DNA from: an uncultured Nitrospiraceae bacterium
GTDB taxonomy: Bacteria > Nitrospirota > Thermodesulfovibrionia > Thermodesulfovibrionales > Dissulfurispiraceae
Assembly (NCBI GenBank): GCA_947085205.1
Contig: CAMTVO010000042.1
Location: forward strand, 1-20,222
Length of the DNA: 20,222 nt
Reading direction: 5' to 3'
Shown: positions 1,683 through 20,222 of the stretch, piece after piece
How the letters are laid out: every line of letters begins with the position of its first letter
Numbering within the stretch: the stretch's first letter is position 1
The notes under the pieces: generated by a model
What the model was told of the DNA's origin: nothing
The model's database searches: none
What the model saw: only the letters and a program-made list of their open reading frames with translations
Program-made: the position numbers and the translations under genes

Positions 1683-1943
1683 TTATCTGTAAACTTCTCT
1701 GCGATGAGCAACTCGATAGACTTTAACAAGCCTGCTTTCATCATCTATCTCATAAAGTATCCTGTAATCTCCTGCTCTAATACGCCGGCGCGAACCGCCA
1801 CCGCTGAGTTTCTTGGAATTATGAGGTCTTGGTTCCTCATACAATCCGAGGATTATTTCTTCAAATCTTGATAACAGTTTGCCCGAAAAACCATCAAGGT
1901 CTTTTTGTGCCTGCGGCATTAACTTGACGAAATAAGAACTCAA
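1683..1943 (-). CDS. RelE/ParE-family type II toxin
   Basis: 86 aa basic protein with AQKDL...PRP...KKL...RIRAGDYRILYEIDD...HRREVY. Overlaps the upstream gene by 4 bp (ATGA). Confidence 0.9.
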   Translation of the reverse strand: MSSYFVKLMPQAQKDLDGFSGKLLSRFEEIILGLYEEPRPHNSKKLSGGGSRRRIRAGDYRILYEIDDESRLVKVYRVAHRREVYR

Positions 1944-2161
1944 GCAGTTTTTCCAGCCCTGCGGCGTTTTGAAAAATATTCTCTAGCAGAGATTGCTTTG
2001 CCCTTTGCCTTTTTTGCTTTTTCAATAAGTGCTATATCGATAAGGTCTTCTCTTAGTGCAGGGTCATTTATCACTTTCTCAAGAAAAGCCTCTTTTTCCT
2101 TAATCCTGAGCGTCTTGAATGCTGTGAAAAAAACTTCTGCTGTTGTCTGATTTGCTCTCAA
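1940..2161 (-). CDS. Probable antitoxin of the RelE-type toxin (73 aa, TTG start)
   Basis: Directly upstream of and overlapping the toxin. Strong RBS AGGAGGTG (2167-2174) 5 nt before TTG at 2161. EDLIDIALIEKA segment resembles toxin-binding helices of such antitoxins. Confidence 0.75.
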   Translation of the reverse strand: MRANQTTAEVFFTAFKTLRIKEKEAFLEKVINDPALREDLIDIALIEKAKKAKGKAISAREYFSKRRRAGKTA

Positions 2162-2226
2162 AATCTCACCTCCTGTTAAGCTTTGTCTTATTTTACCTGA
2201 ATCTTCCTTTAAAATCATTTGCTTTC

Positions 2227-2348
2227 ATAACTCCCCCTAACCCCCTCTTACCTTAAGAGGGGTATTTTCTTTCCTTCCCCCTTGAAGTAAGGGGGATTGA
2301 GGGGGTTACATCCTCCCCTTAAGGTAAGGGGAGGTTGGGAGGGGTTAT
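2227..2348. repeat. Palindromic repeat cluster (three hairpin units, ATAAC...GTTAT ends) at the 3' end of DUF559
   Basis: Hairpins CCCCTCTTA-CCT-TAAGAGGGG, TCCCCCTT-GAAGT-AAGGGGGA and CCTCCCCTT-AAGGT-AAGGGGAGG. Contains the DUF559 stop codon. Confidence 0.95.
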
Positions 2349-2696
2349 CCTCTCCGCTATTATCCTTAAAACATCATTAAGATTTTGCAACACCTCATTA
2401 TTCCAGAACCTCATGACATCGATTCCCTGTGTCTTCAGATACTCTGTGCGAACAGCATCATATTCCAATTGGTCATTTTCATTATGCCCGCCTCCATCCA
2501 ATTCTATGGCGAGTTTCAGCATGGGACAATAGAAGTCTAAAATATAAGGGCCTATACTGTATTGCCTGAAGAATTTCAGACCGTGAAATTGTTTGCTACG
2601 CACATGAGACCAGAAGGTTTTTTCAGCATCTGTTTGATTCCTCCTCAACTCCTGCCGCCGCTGTTTCAGTATCGATGCATTCCGCACTGCTTTCAT
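2319..2696 (-). CDS. DUF559 (Vsr-like / PD-(D/E)xK) endonuclease-domain protein
   Basis: Typical pattern LRRNQTDAE..FW...KFFRQY.IGPYILDFYC...LAIELDGGGH....YDAVRT..L...G..VMRFWNNEV. Confidence 0.93.
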   Translation of the reverse strand: MKAVRNASILKQRRQELRRNQTDAEKTFWSHVRSKQFHGLKFFRQYSIGPYILDFYCPMLKLAIELDGGGHNENDQLEYDAVRTEYLKTQGIDVMRFWNNEVLQNLNDVLRIIAERITPPNLPLP

Positions 2697-2818
2697 AACT
2701 CCCCCTAACCCCCTCTTACCTTAAGAGGGGGAACATAGGATGAAACGTTTTTTAAGAGGGACCCCTCAGCAAATCCTTTCTCCTCCCCTTGAGGTAAGGG
2801 GAGGTTGGGAGGGGTTAT
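2695..2818. repeat. Inverted doublet of the palindromic repeat upstream of DUF559
   Basis: 2688-2730 is identical to 2220-2262 (43 bp). 2781-2818 matches 2311-2348 at 37/38 positions. Provides GGGGGAG-TT-ATG for DUF559. Confidence 0.95.
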
Positions 2819-2891
2819 TCCCCTGTCTTTCCTTCGCCTCTGTCAAAAACTCCTCAGCACGATTTTATAAAGCAAAATTAAAGAGCGGACT

Positions 2892-3983
2892 TTAAGCCCT
2901 CACTTTTGAAAAATTATCAAGAGACTCAAGAGTATTTAATGCATCTTCTTCATTCCAAAGCACTTTCGAGCCGTATGTTTCATTAAGCTTTAATGGTTTG
3001 CTACATATCCAATCATGTAAGCGCTTTTCGGTCAATAATACATCGCAATAAGGCAAAGCCCATGCAGCATGAGAAAAGTCAATAAGGTCATTCTCTTTGA
3101 AACGCTGACTCTTGTTATATCTCAGGAATGCGTGAAGATTTGCATTTATGTGAAAGAACGGCAACTCTTTATTGATCTTTTTTTGAGCAAAAGCATTATA
3201 AATTAGGTTTGACAATAACTCCACACTTTTTGATTCGCGCAAAGCTTCTGTGCTTACAGAACCTCCAGCATCATTTTGGTAAAGATAAATCCAGAGTTTT
3301 TCAATCTCAGGCTTTGCTATATCAAGGACCCCAGCTATTTCATGCATAAAAACTTCGTGAAATGTCTTCCAATCTTGATTCTCATCTTTCCCTTGATTAA
3401 GTTTAGCAATAAGATTGTCTCTATTCCATAAAGGGAAATCACTTTTTATAGTTTTTAACATTTCTACCAGAGTAAATTTTGAAAAGTGATCAAAAAAGCT
3501 GATTCTAATGTTATTCATCTGCTCGTCGGGAATTCCCTCTACTGCGGGATAGAACTCCCCCAACAAAAAGGCCACTTTTGTAAACACATACTTTATGGGA
3601 TTAAAAGGAGATTTTCCTTCTGCTCTCGCTTGACTGTTACGCACAAAACTAAGGAGTTCTTGTCCCACAATGTTAAGCGGTGATATGAAGCAAACCTGCT
3701 GGCTAAGTTCATCCATTACCTGTGCCATATTTAACCTTTTTTCTTTGTTGCGTATGTTCATAAGTTCTTGGAAAACATGAGGGCTTAAAGGACAAATCGC
3801 AACTTCTTTTTGAACAAGGTCTTTCAGCTTTTCATAGATTGCTGTTTGTACTAAAGATGCTTTTCCAAGTGATGCATCACGCATGAAAATCCAGTATTTC
3901 GTATCAAGGTAAATTTGGTACTTATTCAGTACCATATCTCCAATCTTAATTTTAAACTGCTCTGAAAAATCTTCTATCTTCAT
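2892..3983 (-). CDS. Hypothetical protein with PIN-like nuclease signature
   Basis: 363 aa, AT-rich. N-terminal IYLDT, PLSPHVFQEL and C-terminal ENDLIDFSHAAWALPYCDVLLTE resemble the acidic PIN active-site pattern split by a large insert. Confidence 0.6.
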   Translation of the reverse strand: MKIEDFSEQFKIKIGDMVLNKYQIYLDTKYWIFMRDASLGKASLVQTAIYEKLKDLVQKEVAICPLSPHVFQELMNIRNKEKRLNMAQVMDELSQQVCFISPLNIVGQELLSFVRNSQARAEGKSPFNPIKYVFTKVAFLLGEFYPAVEGIPDEQMNNIRISFFDHFSKFTLVEMLKTIKSDFPLWNRDNLIAKLNQGKDENQDWKTFHEVFMHEIAGVLDIAKPEIEKLWIYLYQNDAGGSVSTEALRESKSVELLSNLIYNAFAQKKINKELPFFHINANLHAFLRYNKSQRFKENDLIDFSHAAWALPYCDVLLTEKRLHDWICSKPLKLNETYGSKVLWNEEDALNTLESLDNFSKVRA

Positions 3984-4029
3984 TGTTTAATTTTCAAATT
4001 GTTGTCATTTTTAAATCGCATCCCATCTG

Positions 4030-4485
4030 TTACTTCTTCCAACCATTAATCCAGCCACTACCAATTCCTTTGTGAATTACCTTATGCTCCGGAGGTTTCG
4101 GCTCCTTTCCTAGTTTATAATATTTTCGAGTGCAATCTTTCGTCATGCACACCCACCCATTAGCATATTCTTTTAAATGGGACTTCTTACCGTTCGCCAT
4201 ACAAGATGGACAAAAATAGTTACCTGTTTTCTTTTCTTTGTAAATAGCCACATCGGGGATAAATACATATTTGGGTCTTTTTACAAATATGTATCCCGCT
4301 AATGCAATGCAGGCAATTATCAAAACAACGACTACCCAAAACCATGCCAGTGGATCAACGCTATTTATAAATTTTACAGGAACAAATTGGGCAGCAACAA
4401 GTATTAAAGTGCTAATAATGGTAAGGATTACCGTAGCAATATGTTCAGCTATTTTTTCAATCAATTTTTCCTTCAAAAGCTTCAT
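4030..4485 (-). CDS. Hypothetical membrane protein, two TM helices plus C-terminal Zn-ribbon
   Basis: Hydrophobic segments IATVILTIISTLILVAAQFV and LAWFWVVVVLIIACIALAGYIFV; CPSC...CMTKDC. AGGA RBS upstream. Confidence 0.7.
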   Translation of the reverse strand: MKLLKEKLIEKIAEHIATVILTIISTLILVAAQFVPVKFINSVDPLAWFWVVVVLIIACIALAGYIFVKRPKYVFIPDVAIYKEKKTGNYFCPSCMANGKKSHLKEYANGWVCMTKDCTRKYYKLGKEPKPPEHKVIHKGIGSGWINGWKK

Positions 4486-4524
4486 TCGTTTTCCTGTGTT
4501 AATCTACTGTTATATTTGTTAAAA

Positions 4525-7500
4525 TCACTTCCCCTCAATTATTTTCCTCTCCTCTTCCGTTATCCCATAAAGCCCATAAACAATATTATCAATCTTCTCA
4601 TCTGTAACCGCAATCTCACGTTCTATTTTATCACGCTCTGCTGATAGTAGGAGGGAGTTTTTCTTTTTATGAAGCTCAAGCATTCGGTCAACGAGGGAGA
4701 CGAGTTTGTCGTGGATGGCTTTTTCAGAAGGGTTGGTGAAATTAATGGTGCGGATGGGAAGTTCTAAAAGCGGTGCTTTATCAATTTGCAATGCATTGCC
4801 CTGTTTCTTTCCTTTCTTGTCAAACCAGAAATGAGCAATCTTAGAATTTAAAATTGCAACAAGATATTTGAGATTTATGTCGCCTGGTTTTAATACGAAA
4901 AAGGTCTGAGATACATAACAGGGGAAATCAGTATAGGTAAAACAAGGTCTTTGTGTCTTTCTTAATGAAATTATTTTTTCGCCAAGGAAAAATCTTTCCT
5001 CCCTTGCACGGTGAAGTCCATACGGTTTAAAATCTGATGTAATAACAGACTTGAATTTATCCAGATGTGCCTTGATATGAGGATAATCCTTTATATATTT
5101 TATAGTTTCTGTAGTCGTATAGATAACCCAAAGTGAATTGGCAGGGTTTCCATAATATCTTGTCAATTCATTAGTTGTATAAAAAGGCTTTATTATCTTT
5201 TCCTCTTCTTTGGTAAGACGGAGCCTTTTCTTTTCCTCTGTTGAAATATTGAAGATGCCATCGCCTATCTTTACTGTTGGGTCACTTAATTTTGGAAGAT
5301 GCTTTGCTATGACAAAGTCCTGAGGTAGGACAATGCCTTGAGCAACATCATTCCCCTTTAAACGATATGTTCCATTCTTTTCAATCTTGTTTAGGATTGC
5401 TGCATCTTGTTGGTTAATAAATGTGAAGACTTCGCCTTTTGTTTTAGGTTTTAAAGTAGAAGGGAATGATACTGCAAAATTATCATCCTTCCCATGGAAA
5501 AGAAAATCAGCTATATCAGAAACTGGTATATCCTTTTTTAGAATTCGCCTATAGCGTATTTCTCCTTTGTGTGGTTTATCTGTCTTTTTTAGCAGATATA
5601 CCATTGTTTGAATGCCTGCCGTTTCAAAGACCCTGTAGTCTCCAAAATCAATGAACTCCAATAATTGTGTCTCTGACAAGATTTTCTTGCGGAGGATACT
5701 TGCCCCGCTGTTTGTAATCCAGTTATTTGGTGCAATAAAACTATGCAGCCCACCAATCTTGAGAAGGTCTAAGGAGAGGCATGCAAAGATATACCATAGA
5801 TCCATTTTACCCTGATAGTATTTAAAGAGTTTTGTTCCACGCAAATCATGAAACGGCTGTTTGCTTGTATATTCTTTCACATACGGCGGGTTGCCGATGA
5901 CGCAATCAAACCCTCCGCTCTCCATTATCTCTCCAAATCCAACTGTCTTTGAGTTCCAATCAAAAGGATTGATGCGGCTTTTATCTTCGTCAGACAGTCC
6001 AGCTACAGGGACAGTCCCTTCATAACTCCCCCTTCCCCCTCTTATCTTAAGAGGGGTTATTTTCTTTCCTTCCCCCTTGAAGTAAGGGGGATTGAGGGGG
6101 TAACATCCTCCCCTTAAGGTAAGGGGAGGTTGGGAGGGGTTATCCAATATGTCATAACCAATCAAACTATTGCCGCATTTGATGTTGTTGCTCAAAGGAG
6201 GAAGAAGGTGCTGCTTTTTAGGAAGCATCCCGCGCTCGCCTTCCAATGCTTTCAGATATAGGCTCATCATAGTTATCTCAACAGCCTGAGGGTCAATGTC
6301 AACACCGAAGATGTTATTTCTGAGAATCTTTGCCTTTTCATGAATCGGCAGCGACAACTCTTCAGGCGATATTTTCCAGTAAGGAAATAGATGCAGCGTC
6401 TGCGCCTCTTTTGGATGCTCACGATAGTATTTCAGGTGGTAGTCAATCAGGTATTGATATGCTCCGAGGAGGAATGAGCCTGAACCGCACGCAGGGTCAA
6501 GTATTTTTATTTTTTCTATCTGTTTCGGTGTCTTGCCCTCAATGAGTTTTCCGACTGTATTTTTGACAATGTAATCAACAATATATTTCGGCGTGTAATA
6601 AACCCCACCTGCCTTTCTTACCTCCGGCTTTTCCTCAACCTTAACCCTCTGCGGAGTTACCCTTATCGTGCTTCCAAGATAACGCTCATATATGCTTCCC
6701 AAGAGTTCAACGCCTATGGCGTCAAACCTGTATCTGCTCTTCGGGAAATAGAGGTTCTCTATAATCTCTGCAATGAGGTTTGAATCAACATCTGCTCTCT
6801 CACATGCGTGAGGTTTAAAAATATCGCCGTTTAAATCATCGTTCACTTCGTGGAAGAGGTCAAGGAGATGGCTCATTATGGATTTTCTCTTGCCTTCTTC
6901 TTTCCAGAGGGCCACAATCTCTATTAATTCCTTGTCAGGCCGTATCCTTCTGTCCTCTGCGATGCGGATAAAGATAATCCTGTCGAGGAGTTTCTGGACA
7001 ACATCATTCAATAACTTCACATCGAATTCAGGATTCCGTTTATGAATATCCTTTGCAAGCTCTGTCCTCCATTCTGTTAAATCTTCAAGGAATGATTTGT
7101 CAGGCGGAATCCTGAGCCTCTTGCTCTTTGTATCCTTGGGCAATAGGGCTTCCAAAGAACCCTGTTCAATGCGCTCTTTTGAAAGCTCCCAAAGTTTTTC
7201 TATGTTATTGAGGTAATCAGTATGTTTGAGGCCGAGGATTAATCCTTCGTCAGGGAATTTCGGATTTGGCTTTAAAGATGCGTCATAAAGCCTGAACTCT
7301 TCAAAGTCAGTGAGAATTACAAAATAGACCTCTTTTGTGGACCACACATAACTCTTTGCCTGAAGTATGTGGTTGATGTCATCAAGGGCAACAGACGGGG
7401 CTTTCGCTTCGATAAAAAATTTTATTGCTCCGTTTATTCTGAAGTTGTAATCGGGTCTTCCCGTAGTTTCCGGCGAAAGCTCGACGATTACATCTCTTTC

Positions 7501-7680
7501 ATGCGGCGGTTTCTGCGCCTTGTTTTCTATGTCCCAGCCGAGGGCTTTGAAAAAGGGGTTTATGAAGTCGATTCTTACCTGTGCCTCAAGATAGCCTTTT
7601 GACAGATAGTGGACTTTATCCTTCTCAAACTTTGAGATTAGCGCATTAAGTTTTTCTTTGAATATGTCAATATCGCCCAT
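4525..7680 (-). CDS. Type IIG restriction-modification enzyme (endonuclease + N6-adenine MTase + TRD; Eco57I/TaqI-C-like)
   Basis: N-terminal RPDY...FFIEAK nuclease motif, GVYYTP, motif I ILDPACGSGSFL, GVDID, motif IV VIGNPPY, C-terminal YLVAILNS and ID..VY.LYGIT.EE.KIIE. Confidence 0.93.
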   Translation of the reverse strand: MGDIDIFKEKLNALISKFEKDKVHYLSKGYLEAQVRIDFINPFFKALGWDIENKAQKPPHERDVIVELSPETTGRPDYNFRINGAIKFFIEAKAPSVALDDINHILQAKSYVWSTKEVYFVILTDFEEFRLYDASLKPNPKFPDEGLILGLKHTDYLNNIEKLWELSKERIEQGSLEALLPKDTKSKRLRIPPDKSFLEDLTEWRTELAKDIHKRNPEFDVKLLNDVVQKLLDRIIFIRIAEDRRIRPDKELIEIVALWKEEGKRKSIMSHLLDLFHEVNDDLNGDIFKPHACERADVDSNLIAEIIENLYFPKSRYRFDAIGVELLGSIYERYLGSTIRVTPQRVKVEEKPEVRKAGGVYYTPKYIVDYIVKNTVGKLIEGKTPKQIEKIKILDPACGSGSFLLGAYQYLIDYHLKYYREHPKEAQTLHLFPYWKISPEELSLPIHEKAKILRNNIFGVDIDPQAVEITMMSLYLKALEGERGMLPKKQHLLPPLSNNIKCGNSLIGYDILDNPSQPPLTLRGGCYPLNPPYFKGEGKKITPLKIRGGRGSYEGTVPVAGLSDEDKSRINPFDWNSKTVGFGEIMESGGFDCVIGNPPYVKEYTSKQPFHDLRGTKLFKYYQGKMDLWYIFACLSLDLLKIGGLHSFIAPNNWITNSGASILRKKILSETQLLEFIDFGDYRVFETAGIQTMVYLLKKTDKPHKGEIRYRRILKKDIPVSDIADFLFHGKDDNFAVSFPSTLKPKTKGEVFTFINQQDAAILNKIEKNGTYRLKGNDVAQGIVLPQDFVIAKHLPKLSDPTVKIGDGIFNISTEEKKRLRLTKEEEKIIKPFYTTNELTRYYGNPANSLWVIYTTTETIKYIKDYPHIKAHLDKFKSVITSDFKPYGLHRAREERFFLGEKIISLRKTQRPCFTYTDFPCYVSQTFFVLKPGDINLKYLVAILNSKIAHFWFDKKGKKQGNALQIDKAPLLELPIRTINFTNPSEKAIHDKLVSLVDRMLELHKKKNSLLLSAERDKIEREIAVTDEKIDNIVYGLYGITEEERKIIEGK
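6008..6145. repeat. 127-bp copy of the DUF559 3' repeat cluster plus GGGAC-A-GTCCC palindrome, in-frame in the R-M gene
   Basis: 6019-6145 aligns to 2224-2350 with four local differences. Encodes DNPSQPPLTLRGGCYPLNPPYFKGEGKKITPLKIRGGRGSYEGTVP. Confidence 0.96.
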
Positions 7681-18033: not shown

Positions 18034-18144
18034 TAATGTCCTATTTCGTCATTGCCCGACTTGATCGGGCAATCCAGAGAGAGGCATAAAGACTGGATTC
18101 CGCATCAAGTGCGGAATGACAGACAAAGCAAGCATAGGACATTA
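18034..18144. mobile_element. 111-bp element: 11-bp perfect inverted repeat enclosing a CGTC-tagged double-hairpin REP/RPE-like repeat
   Basis: TAATGTCCTAT / ATAGGACATTA. Inside: GTC-ATTGCCCGA-CTTGA-TCGGGCAAT-CCAG...CTGG-ATTCCGCA-TCAAG-TGCGGAAT-GAC. Confidence 0.75.
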
Positions 18145-19083: not shown

Positions 19084-20222
19084 TGCATACCTTTACAGTC
19101 CAGGCTATTGAAAAACTATTCAGGGGCAAATTCTCCGCAGCCGCCGATATACAACTCCTGTGGAAAGGGGACGAATCGTTCAGAACCATCTTCGATGCGG
19201 TAAGAAACGCAAAAGATTTTATATGCCTCGAATTCTATATCTTCAGAAATGACGAGACAGGTAATGAATTGGCAGAACTCTTAAAACAAAAAAGCAAAGA
19301 AGGAGTTAAGGTATACCTCCTTTATGACCACTTTGGCTCGTTCGGAACGCCGAGTGGCTTCTGGAAGGACATGAGGAATGCCGGAATAAAAATAAGGGCA
19401 TCCCGGCCGTTTAAGTGGACTTCTCCTTTTAATTATGTGCACAGAGACCACAGGAAGCTCATCGTTATTGACTTCAAGAAGGCATTCACCGGAGGATTAA
19501 ATATAGCAAACGAATACAGCGGTTTTCATAAAAAGATATATCCCCCTATAATTCCCCCCTTGGTAAAGGGGAATACAGGGGGGTGGCGGGATACGGGAAT
19601 AATGCTTGAAGGCCCTATAGTGAATGAACTTTTCGAGACTTTTAAAAAATGGTGGTACATATGGGGCGGAGAACCCATAACAATTTCAAATTTCAAATTT
19701 CAAATTTCAAATTTCAAGGAAGGTATCCCTGCAATTCCGATATTCGTCAGCTCTGCGAGAGGCAGAAGGAGAATGAGAAGGCTTCTCTATTACAGCATAA
19801 ACCACTCCCGGAAAAGCATTACATTAACAACCGCCTATTTTACCCCGTCTAGAAGGATGGTGGAGACATTGGAAAATGCAGTAAACCGCGGAGTAAGGGT
19901 AAGACTTCTCGTTCCGGGCATCAGTGATGTGCCGGCAGCATCATATGCAGGAAGGGCTTTCTTTGAAAGGCTCTTAAAGGCAGGCGTTGAGATATACACA
20001 TATACCGGAGAAATACTCCATGCAAAGACATACATCTTCGATGACTGCTGGAGCGTTATAGGCTCAACAAATCTCGATTTCCAGTCTTTAAGATACAACG
20101 ACGAGGGGAATGTCGGAATACTCAATGCCGACTTTGCATCAAATATGAACGCTATCTTTGAGGAAGACCTGAAAAATTCAACCGGAATAACGCTTGACGA
20201 ATGGCTTAAAAGGCCATTCAGA
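19083..20222 (+). CDS. Cardiolipin synthase-like phospholipase D (ClsB-type, no N-terminal TM), truncated by window end
   Basis: Hand translation from ATG 19083 (overlaps upstream TAA) is open for 380 codons, with two HKD motifs (HRKLIVID...GGLN, HAKTYIFD...GSTN), WRDT and TAYF.P. Absent from the ORF track because no stop falls in the window. Confidence 0.92.
   Translation, partial: MHTFTVQAIEKLFRGKFSAAADIQLLWKGDESFRTIFDAVRNAKDFICLEFYIFRNDETGNELAELLKQKSKEGVKVYLLYDHFGSFGTPSGFWKDMRNAGIKIRASRPFKWTSPFNYVHRDHRKLIVIDFKKAFTGGLNIANEYSGFHKKIYPPIIPPLVKGNTGGWRDTGIMLEGPIVNELFETFKKWWYIWGGEPITISNFKFQISNFKEGIPAIPIFVSSARGRRRMRRLLYYSINHSRKSITLTTAYFTPSRRMVETLENAVNRGVRVRLLVPGISDVPAASYAGRAFFERLLKAGVEIYTYTGEILHAKTYIFDDCWSVIGSTNLDFQSLRYNDEGNVGILNADFASNMNAIFEEDLKNSTGITLDEWLKRPFR
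19541..19583. repeat. C/G-rich palindromic repeat in-frame in the PLD gene (encodes PPIIPPLVKGNTGG)
   Basis: CCCCCTATAATTCCCCCCTT-GGT-AAAGGGGAATACAGGGGGG; same architecture as 520-564. Confidence 0.8.
19683..19717. repeat. Perfect heptamer tandem repeat (ATTTCAA)x5 inside the PLD gene
   Basis: Five exact copies; encodes ISNFKFQISNFK in the linker between the two PLD halves. Confidence 0.95.

Follow-up and report, generated by a model that had tools for sequence, protein, structure and literature searches.

A DUF559 nuclease gene bracketed by triplex-type repeats: a candidate selfish gene-plus-repeat unit in a Nitrospirota bacterium

The window (the whole stretch of DNA analysed, 20,222 nucleotides) derives from an uncultured Nitrospiraceae bacterium whose assembly amounts to 1.89 Mb and is 89.7% complete; the locus of interest lies on contig C42. 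An open reading frame on the minus strand (2319-2696) encodes a 125-residue protein matching PF04480 (DUF559) with an E-value of 6.5e-37 and a score of 126 bits, above the Pfam gathering cut-off of 20.6. This was the sole DUF559 match in the genome at that completeness, and a search across the genome for other DUF559 remnants found none. The closest DUF559 relative found, at 96%, was in a Nitrospirota record. The gene is intergenic, and two repeat clusters, at 2227-2348 and 2695-2818, overlap its two ends. The features of the locus, followed by related units elsewhere in the window, were as follows.

2186-2226, minus strand: right flank, similar to the RM gene's 3' end and the sequence after it; present in empty junctions of relatives.
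2220-2262, no strand: 43-nt perfect direct repeat (repeat family D2), whose second copy at 2688-2730 covers the first three codons of the DUF559 gene.
2227-2262, minus strand: outer subtype A unit of the downstream cluster; presumed right end of the element at 2227, with loose ends there in runs X4 and X5.
2277-2307, plus strand: middle hairpin-plus-tail unit of the downstream cluster, from the triplex-motif scan.
2311-2348, plus strand: downstream inward-facing unit, whose minus strand encodes the last codons and stop of the DUF559 gene.
2319-2696, minus strand: DUF559 (Vsr/EDxHD-fold) nuclease gene, 125 aa, with predicted catalytic residues E25, D54, H71 and D80 intact.
2695-2731, minus strand: upstream inward-facing unit with subtype A triplex motif (10-bp hairpin, TTA loop, purine third strand, ATG directly after).
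2781-2818, plus strand: outer unit of the upstream cluster (hairpin and outward tail), repeat family D3.
2828-2884, minus strand: left flank, common to relatives G181, G209 and G019, and within about 25 nt of the right flank in G181.
518-566, no strand: double-tailed unit with a triplex motif, of a different subtype, lying in frame within a NAD(P)HX dehydratase/epimerase gene.
6022-6143, no strand: copy of the three-hairpin cluster that lacks the gene and lies in frame within a variable loop of an Eco57I-like RM gene (4525-7680).
19543-19588, no strand: unit lying in frame within a PLD-family gene; degenerate, and of a different subtype.

Read along the minus strand, the upstream cluster closes with GGGGGAGTT immediately before the ATG, providing a G-rich, RBS-like tract and the start of the DUF559 gene, while the downstream cluster encodes the terminal ITPPNLPLP and the TAA stop. 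An earlier note on this DNA had placed the gene between the two clusters and assigned its start and end to them, both of which were confirmed. The note had also described the flanking units as being in inverted orientation. The two clusters are direct repeats of each other, identical over 43 nt (2220-2262 and 2688-2730); inversion is found among the units inside each cluster, where the two units that touch the gene face inward. The predicted folds of 2227-2348 (z -4.2) and 2695-2818 (z -2.6) were better than those of 200 out of 200 shuffles, and that of 6020-6145 was better than 199 out of 200 (z -3.0), as scored by folding programs that count Watson-Crick pairs only. Among the gene-less units that the note regarded as related, the cluster at 6022-6143 is a true copy of the downstream cluster (89% over 127 nt, ungapped), whereas those at 520 and 19541 belong to other subtypes of the wider family; the latter is degenerate, folds weakly (z -0.9) and was missed by the triplex-motif scan.

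The repeat itself was compared with the class II intrastrand triplex motifs that Holder et al. (2015) defined and listed 23 times in E. coli (PMC4666352, available text). Such a motif runs from a pyrimidine arm (Y) through a loop, a purine arm (R) and a second loop to a third strand, with G.G-C and A/T.A-T triads, a stem of 6-15 and loops of 1-6. In the unit at 2697-2731, these parts are a 10-bp hairpin, a TTA loop and a third strand, which yields nine valid triads. Judged by sequence plan, the flanking repeats fit the published BoxC/PIT/TM motif as a divergent subtype, and are thus not a family of the gene's own, as had been supposed. The likeness to BoxC/PIT/TM(ECO), as far as the available text of PMC4666352 describes it, extends from the order of parts (pyrimidine arm, loop, purine arm, short loop that is often TTA, mirror third strand) to paired inverted copies and variable loci; units beside nucleases of clade B resemble, by eye, the printed TM(ECO) sequences. 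None of the window's units matched the exact TM(ECO) consensus when compared by eye.

Scanning the genome for the triplex motif gave 51 loci with 79 strand hits, compared with one hit in each of two block shuffles. The scanner looks for GGG on both strands and passes over units with an AGG end, which makes these counts lower bounds. TM(ECO) motifs are stated in the same source to be always intergenic (PMC4666352, available text), whereas 39 of the 51 loci here fall within open frames of at least 150 codons, some of which may be spurious. To examine the third strand, 167 hairpins beside DUF559 genes were chosen without regard to their tails. The tails formed 6.74 triads with their own hairpins and 4.99 when swapped (maximum 5.22 in 500 swaps). 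This better fit to the own purine arm argues that the mirror relation is kept while the sequence changes. The available text of PMC4666352 reports no support for stable triplexes in vivo.

Other repeats were seen in the same genome. Palindromes of the GTCATTCCC type lie at 1-40 and 18048-18120 of the window (the 9-mer has 70 hits in the genome), and heptamer tandem repeats run in frame through several genes, for example at 1203-1226 and 19680-19716. A decayed small GIY-YIG gene (L004 1640-1700; G000:C15 near 26088) directly follows a GTCATTGCGAG-type palindrome, of which the genome has eight copies; this is possibly a parallel pairing of nuclease and repeat. The single Y1_Tnp gene (L002 1400-1940, G000:C5) is bracketed by short GGGACAG/CTGTCCC inverted motifs that resemble another abundant repeat family of the genome and are unlike the triplex units. 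By eye, the last ~140 nt of contig C5 duplicate the end of the window's contig, perhaps reflecting an assembly join.

The encoded protein is predicted to be a nuclease. D54, H71 and D80 are invariant, and E25 is at least 90% conserved, among 82 intact DUF559 sequences. The spacing of D54-H71-D80 (17/9) equals that of D196-H213-D222 in I-Bth0305I, residues given in the available text of PMC3239194 as the counterparts of Vsr D51, H69 and D97. The catalytic residues are thereby predicted from conservation, spacing and fold, rather than from residue-level superposition. A structure model built from the 82-row alignment reached a pLDDT of 85 (50 from the single sequence), and matched 3hrl and 3r3p (I-Bth0305I, E 1e-4); 3hrl was also matched by sequence (E 7.8e-24), and mitoribosomal proteins were among the other fold neighbours. 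Searches of the 125-aa protein gave no Y1_Tnp hit and no DDE domain, the fold being Vsr-like. The DUF559 domain begins at residue 10 of 125, leaving the protein without an N-terminal NUMOD region. The earlier note knew of no mobility role for such a domain; I-Bth0305I, a close structural relative, is an established homing endonuclease (PMC3239194, available text).

Comparison with two relatives gave dN/dS values of 0.08 and 0.11 (about 0.1), indicating purifying selection on the gene. Across the family, DUF559 matches were found in 87 of 201 genomes, with up to 11 per genome, and 21 of 101 matches contained a stop codon. A family so patchy, multi-copy and often broken fits the expectation for a selfish gene. 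It also makes it unlikely that the nuclease is a domesticated host function, which might resolve or repair triplexes or hairpins, or process hairpin RNA, with the repeats regulating its own expression. Purifying selection and the single copy in this genome would suit such a role, as would the mitoribosomal fold neighbours, the upstream unit abutting the start (the third strand is directly followed by ATG in 16 of 29 members of clade A, to which the gene belongs) and the high conservation of ycjD that is reported for E. coli phylogroups A, B1 and C (PMC12817139, available text). Set against this are the unrelated genomic contexts of the family and the genomes full of other repeat subtypes that have no matching enzyme. 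Moreover, an RNA role sits poorly with the statement, in the available text of PMC4666352, that purine-motif triplexes do not form in RNA.

We then assessed how regularly the repeat accompanies the gene, using 101 DUF559 loci (the window's own, 89 taken from the best-scoring among 204 matches at order level, and a further 11 found in other genomes). The triplex motif was present within 250 nt upstream at 74 of 96 loci and within 250 nt downstream at 72 of 100. It was found on either side at 85 of 95 loci, with an inward-facing pair at 51 of 95, while the triplex scanner detected no unit at 10 of 95. In control windows of the same size further out at the same loci, the motif occurred in 19 of 535. 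Thus, the gene is flanked by cognate palindromes that also occur alone, which is the arrangement of a REPtron-like element. For TM motifs the available text of PMC4666352 found no mobility gene nearby, whereas here a nuclease family is tied to them.

A RAYT/IS200-type HUH transposase might instead spread the repeats, the DUF559 gene being merely a frequent neighbour. Such a gene is indeed at hand, since this genome has one Y1_Tnp gene and 52 of 68 family genomes have one. However, none of the 31 Y1_Tnp loci examined, that of this genome included, had the triplex motif nearby, and the genome's own copy has different short inverted flanks. The HUH transposase thus does not explain the repeats, and this account, largely refuted for the sampled loci, is very improbable.

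The association reaches E. coli K-12: its ycjD gene (43% identical) has a decayed unit at its end and is located 168 nt from the published TM no. 9; no unit was found upstream of ycjD. According to the available text of PMC12817139, ycjD occupies the site at which other E. coli phylogroups have the eefRABCD operon, making the K-12 fabI-sapF interval (L287) a replaced site beside a TM repeat. In the reverse search, starting from loci that carry the exact subtype A motif, DUF559 was nearby at 7 of 123 from metagenomes and at 0 of 18 from viruses, in both cases with flanks of only 300-700 nt. These counts are consistent with many solo copies and say nothing on mobility.

Repeat subtype was next set against nuclease phylogeny. 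Seven repeat classes placed on a 114-protein tree required 14 changes, compared with 57.6 when shuffled, and 0 of 200 shuffles were as low. This was a quick tree, with classes defined after the data had been seen; likeness to the window, or the repeat, had guided the choice of 13 of its 114 rows, 21 rows carried no label, and L005, which duplicates L037, was left out. A class-free Mantel test over 78 loci gave a rho of 0.41 (maximum 0.15 in 300 permutations). Furthermore, in 26 of 28 same-genome comparisons, which are non-independent, the repeat was nearer to that of the closest protein elsewhere than to that of the genome's other DUF559 gene; there was one tie and one loss. The clades of the tree mix host families and phyla, and there are at least five repeat subtypes that each surround a separate DUF559 clade. 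Within the sample of related genomes, a given nuclease branch mostly carries its own version of the repeat. That subtype follows nuclease shows that gene and repeats are inherited as a unit; recognition is not implied, as co-inheritance alone accounts for the covariation.

The genomic contexts of the unit are diverse. The neighbours of clade A vary and include Cas6/Csm1, an integrase, aroA, glycosyltransferases, a creatininase and SurA, among others. In two genomes a clade A unit separates Cas6 from Csm1, and in a third genome one is found next to Cas_NE0113 (L033, L234, L228). At two further loci (L032, L039), DUF559 domains with flanking hairpins sit inside frames of 409 and 874 codons, apparently RM genes. 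In the window, the surroundings form an island (1683-7680) of an Eco57I-like RM gene with variable toxin-antitoxin or unknown cassettes, as also seen at L066, L068, L069, L070, L072 and L074. Between the cassettes of relatives, the last 40-70 codons of the RM gene recur again and again, which suggests a cassette array growing at the RM 3' end. Two frames of the island, 2892-3983 (363 aa) and 4030-4485 (151 aa), had no Pfam hits and have homologues beside an RM gene in G209.

Such surroundings could indicate that the protein is an accessory nuclease of defence islands, for instance a partner of the neighbouring RM enzyme, with incidental repeats. In its favour, the gene has an RM gene and toxin-antitoxin cassettes around it both in the window and in several relatives, and three clade members lie beside CRISPR-associated genes. 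Yet many clade members lie among housekeeping or metabolic genes, and the constant feature is the repeats rather than the neighbours, leaving this interpretation improbable.

Filled and empty sites were sought in relatives. In four genomes (G043, G054, G149, G006) a response-regulator gene lies directly next to the NAD(P)HX repair gene, whereas here the island separates the two. An empty junction was found in G181, in which the two flanks of the window are joined within about 25 nt and without any repeat. In G106, a cluster is followed by only the first codons of a DUF559 gene; the RM gene of that genome breaks off at its internal cluster and continues into the flank that here follows the DUF559 cluster. 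In runs X4 and X5, contigs part from the window exactly at 2227 and run on into RM-end sequence; on this basis the right end of the element is presumed to fall after GTTA. In 148 sampled copies, the sequence following this end was TG in 63 and TGAA in 24. No target-site duplication was seen at filled compared with empty junctions, and no fixed left end at the junctions compared. Cassette shuffling in the island could itself yield both filled and empty junctions. A joint from 2687 to 2220 on an X5 contig, considered as an excised circle or a tandem, was rejected as evidence because a collapsed 43-nt repeat at depth 3.7 looks identical. An X4 joint skips 2222-2824; one of its sides measures 28 nt, and the joint may stem from another organism.

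The RM loop that holds the cluster at 6022-6143 was also compared between relatives. Among 27 readable alleles, eight carried triplex-type units and seven were empty, while most of the remainder held other repeat families; 3 of 30 alleles had no anchor. Since the loop takes unrelated repeat families too, a general insertion process operates. The methylase loop (window 5960-6150; L288-L317) has a length of 14-17 aa in empty alleles and reaches 64 aa in filled ones, the insertions being in frame. Among relatives, G054 and G217 share the unit at 518-566 in the NAD(P)HX repair gene, and six others lack it; several of these six have heptamer or other repeats in the same loop.

Solo copies were further surveyed across genomes using a subtype A search pattern that admits some non-A units too. 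The pattern was found in 15 of 17 genomes with clade A, 22 of 47 with other clades only, and 19 of 137 without a DUF559 match. For distant solo copies, the difference between clade A genomes (12 of 17) and other-clade genomes (22 of 47) was not significant (p 0.16); the distant copies were drawn from the 150 matches listed, with 12 others left out and G115 inferred. In the present assembly, subtype A amounts to three clusters within 4 kb, and no matching nuclease or remnant was found for the other 48 of the 51 triplex loci.

These observations bear on whether the nuclease acts at all. Some other process may spread the triplex repeats, and a trapped DUF559 gene may travel passively by repeat-to-repeat recombination. 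Hitchhiking of this kind accounts for the covariation and the empty junctions without recognition, and agrees with the mixed occupancy of the RM loop, with the G106 RM gene that breaks off at its cluster and continues into the flank, and with the non-significant solo-copy test. Nevertheless, it does not account for the five or more subtypes that each surround a DUF559 clade of their own, when 0 of 31 HUH loci and 19 of 535 neighbouring windows have the motif, nor for the purifying selection on the active site. We therefore regard passive carriage as unlikely.

In REP/REPIN systems with RAYT, a single nuclease gene is bracketed by cognate palindromes, the solo repeats outnumber the gene, and repeat type tracks enzyme clade. 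The DUF559 unit shares each of these features: one nuclease gene between cognate palindromes, more solo repeats, and a repeat type that tracks the clade. It differs in its enzyme, which has a PD-(D/E)XK Vsr fold where the REPtron enzyme is HUH/Y1, so that no covalent tyrosine strand transfer is expected. The repeats differ as well: those of REPtrons carry GTAG/CGTC tags, whereas the DUF559-linked repeats have a third-strand tail, and units of the gene's subtype end in GTTA, with the GTAG or CGTC end tag absent. In Rickettsia palindromic elements, palindromic repeats are read through in frame in protein loops, a trait shared with the present units, although the sequence family differs; we know of no cognate nuclease for those elements. 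Classical IS/MITE (DDE) elements differ from the DUF559 unit, which has neither a DDE transposase nor a target-site duplication.

The EDxHD homing endonuclease I-Bth0305I is alike in fold, catalytic set and spacing, and its selfish spread by cutting and host repair (PMC3239194, available text) is the route that we infer for the DUF559 unit. Unlike it, the DUF559 protein lacks a NUMOD region, the unit has no conserved host gene or allele-specific site, and the gene, intergenic here and in varying contexts elsewhere, is flanked by repeats and apparently lies outside any intron or intein. Fold and catalytic residues are likewise shared with Vsr and with DUF559/YcjD/NGO0050 (PMC3424549, available text; PDB 3hrl). 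No C5 methyltransferase partner, as in the Vsr system, was found among the window's neighbours or in 51 flanking ORFs (the longest per side), and, unlike the Vsr system, the DUF559 family is patchy and often broken. By analogy, the unit would thus combine a REP/RAYT-like layout with homing-endonuclease-like chemistry, while lacking defining features of both and of DDE elements.

Taken together, the DUF559 gene and its repeats probably constitute a nicking-driven, homing-like selfish gene-plus-repeat unit. The Vsr-type nuclease would nick its own repeat subtype, the recognised substrate being a folded single strand of hairpin plus third strand. Host recombination or microhomology repair would then copy the whole unit, or the repeat alone, to new sites. 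Without strand-transfer chemistry of its own, insertion would have to be completed by such repair; the small replacements at the junctions, and the fact that no target duplication was seen, agree with this. Gene-less clusters such as 6022-6143 would be non-autonomous derivatives or homing targets, and solo units of other subtypes may have been spread by other DUF559 clades, since lost or unassembled. The earlier note had taken gene and repeats for an autonomous unit, and this view was supported in part: repeats are enriched beside DUF559 genes, subtype covaries with nuclease, contexts vary, relatives such as G181 show empty junctions, and the single HUH gene offers no explanation. Counting against it are the 48 triplex loci here without a matching enzyme, the non-significant solo-copy comparison, the 19 of 137 genomes that have the subtype A pattern but no DUF559 match, the junctions with neither a target-site duplication nor a fixed left end, and the general insertion process indicated by the RM loop. 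That the nuclease moves the repeats is still what we infer from these patterns.

A broader proposal is advanced tentatively: DUF559/YcjD proteins may be the missing mobilising enzymes of the BoxC/PIT repeats, a Vsr-fold nuclease reading the intrastrand triplex in a clade-specific code and giving rise to homing-like spread of the gene and to in-frame loop insertions. The open literature searched (subscription literature lying outside its scope) contained no description of a pairing between DUF559/ycjD and BoxC/triplex repeats. The repeat family and the protein family are each known; any novelty would lie in their pairing and depends on the presumed mechanism.

BoxC/PIT repeats have been known since the 1990s without a function or a spreading mechanism. 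A cognate nuclease makes the question testable, in E. coli K-12 too, where ycjD lies beside TM no. 9. If the interpretation is correct, the unit would represent a class of mobile element with neither DDE nor HUH chemistry, its enzyme would be a candidate natural reader of triplex DNA, and its repeats would be a source of in-frame loop insertions in many proteins.
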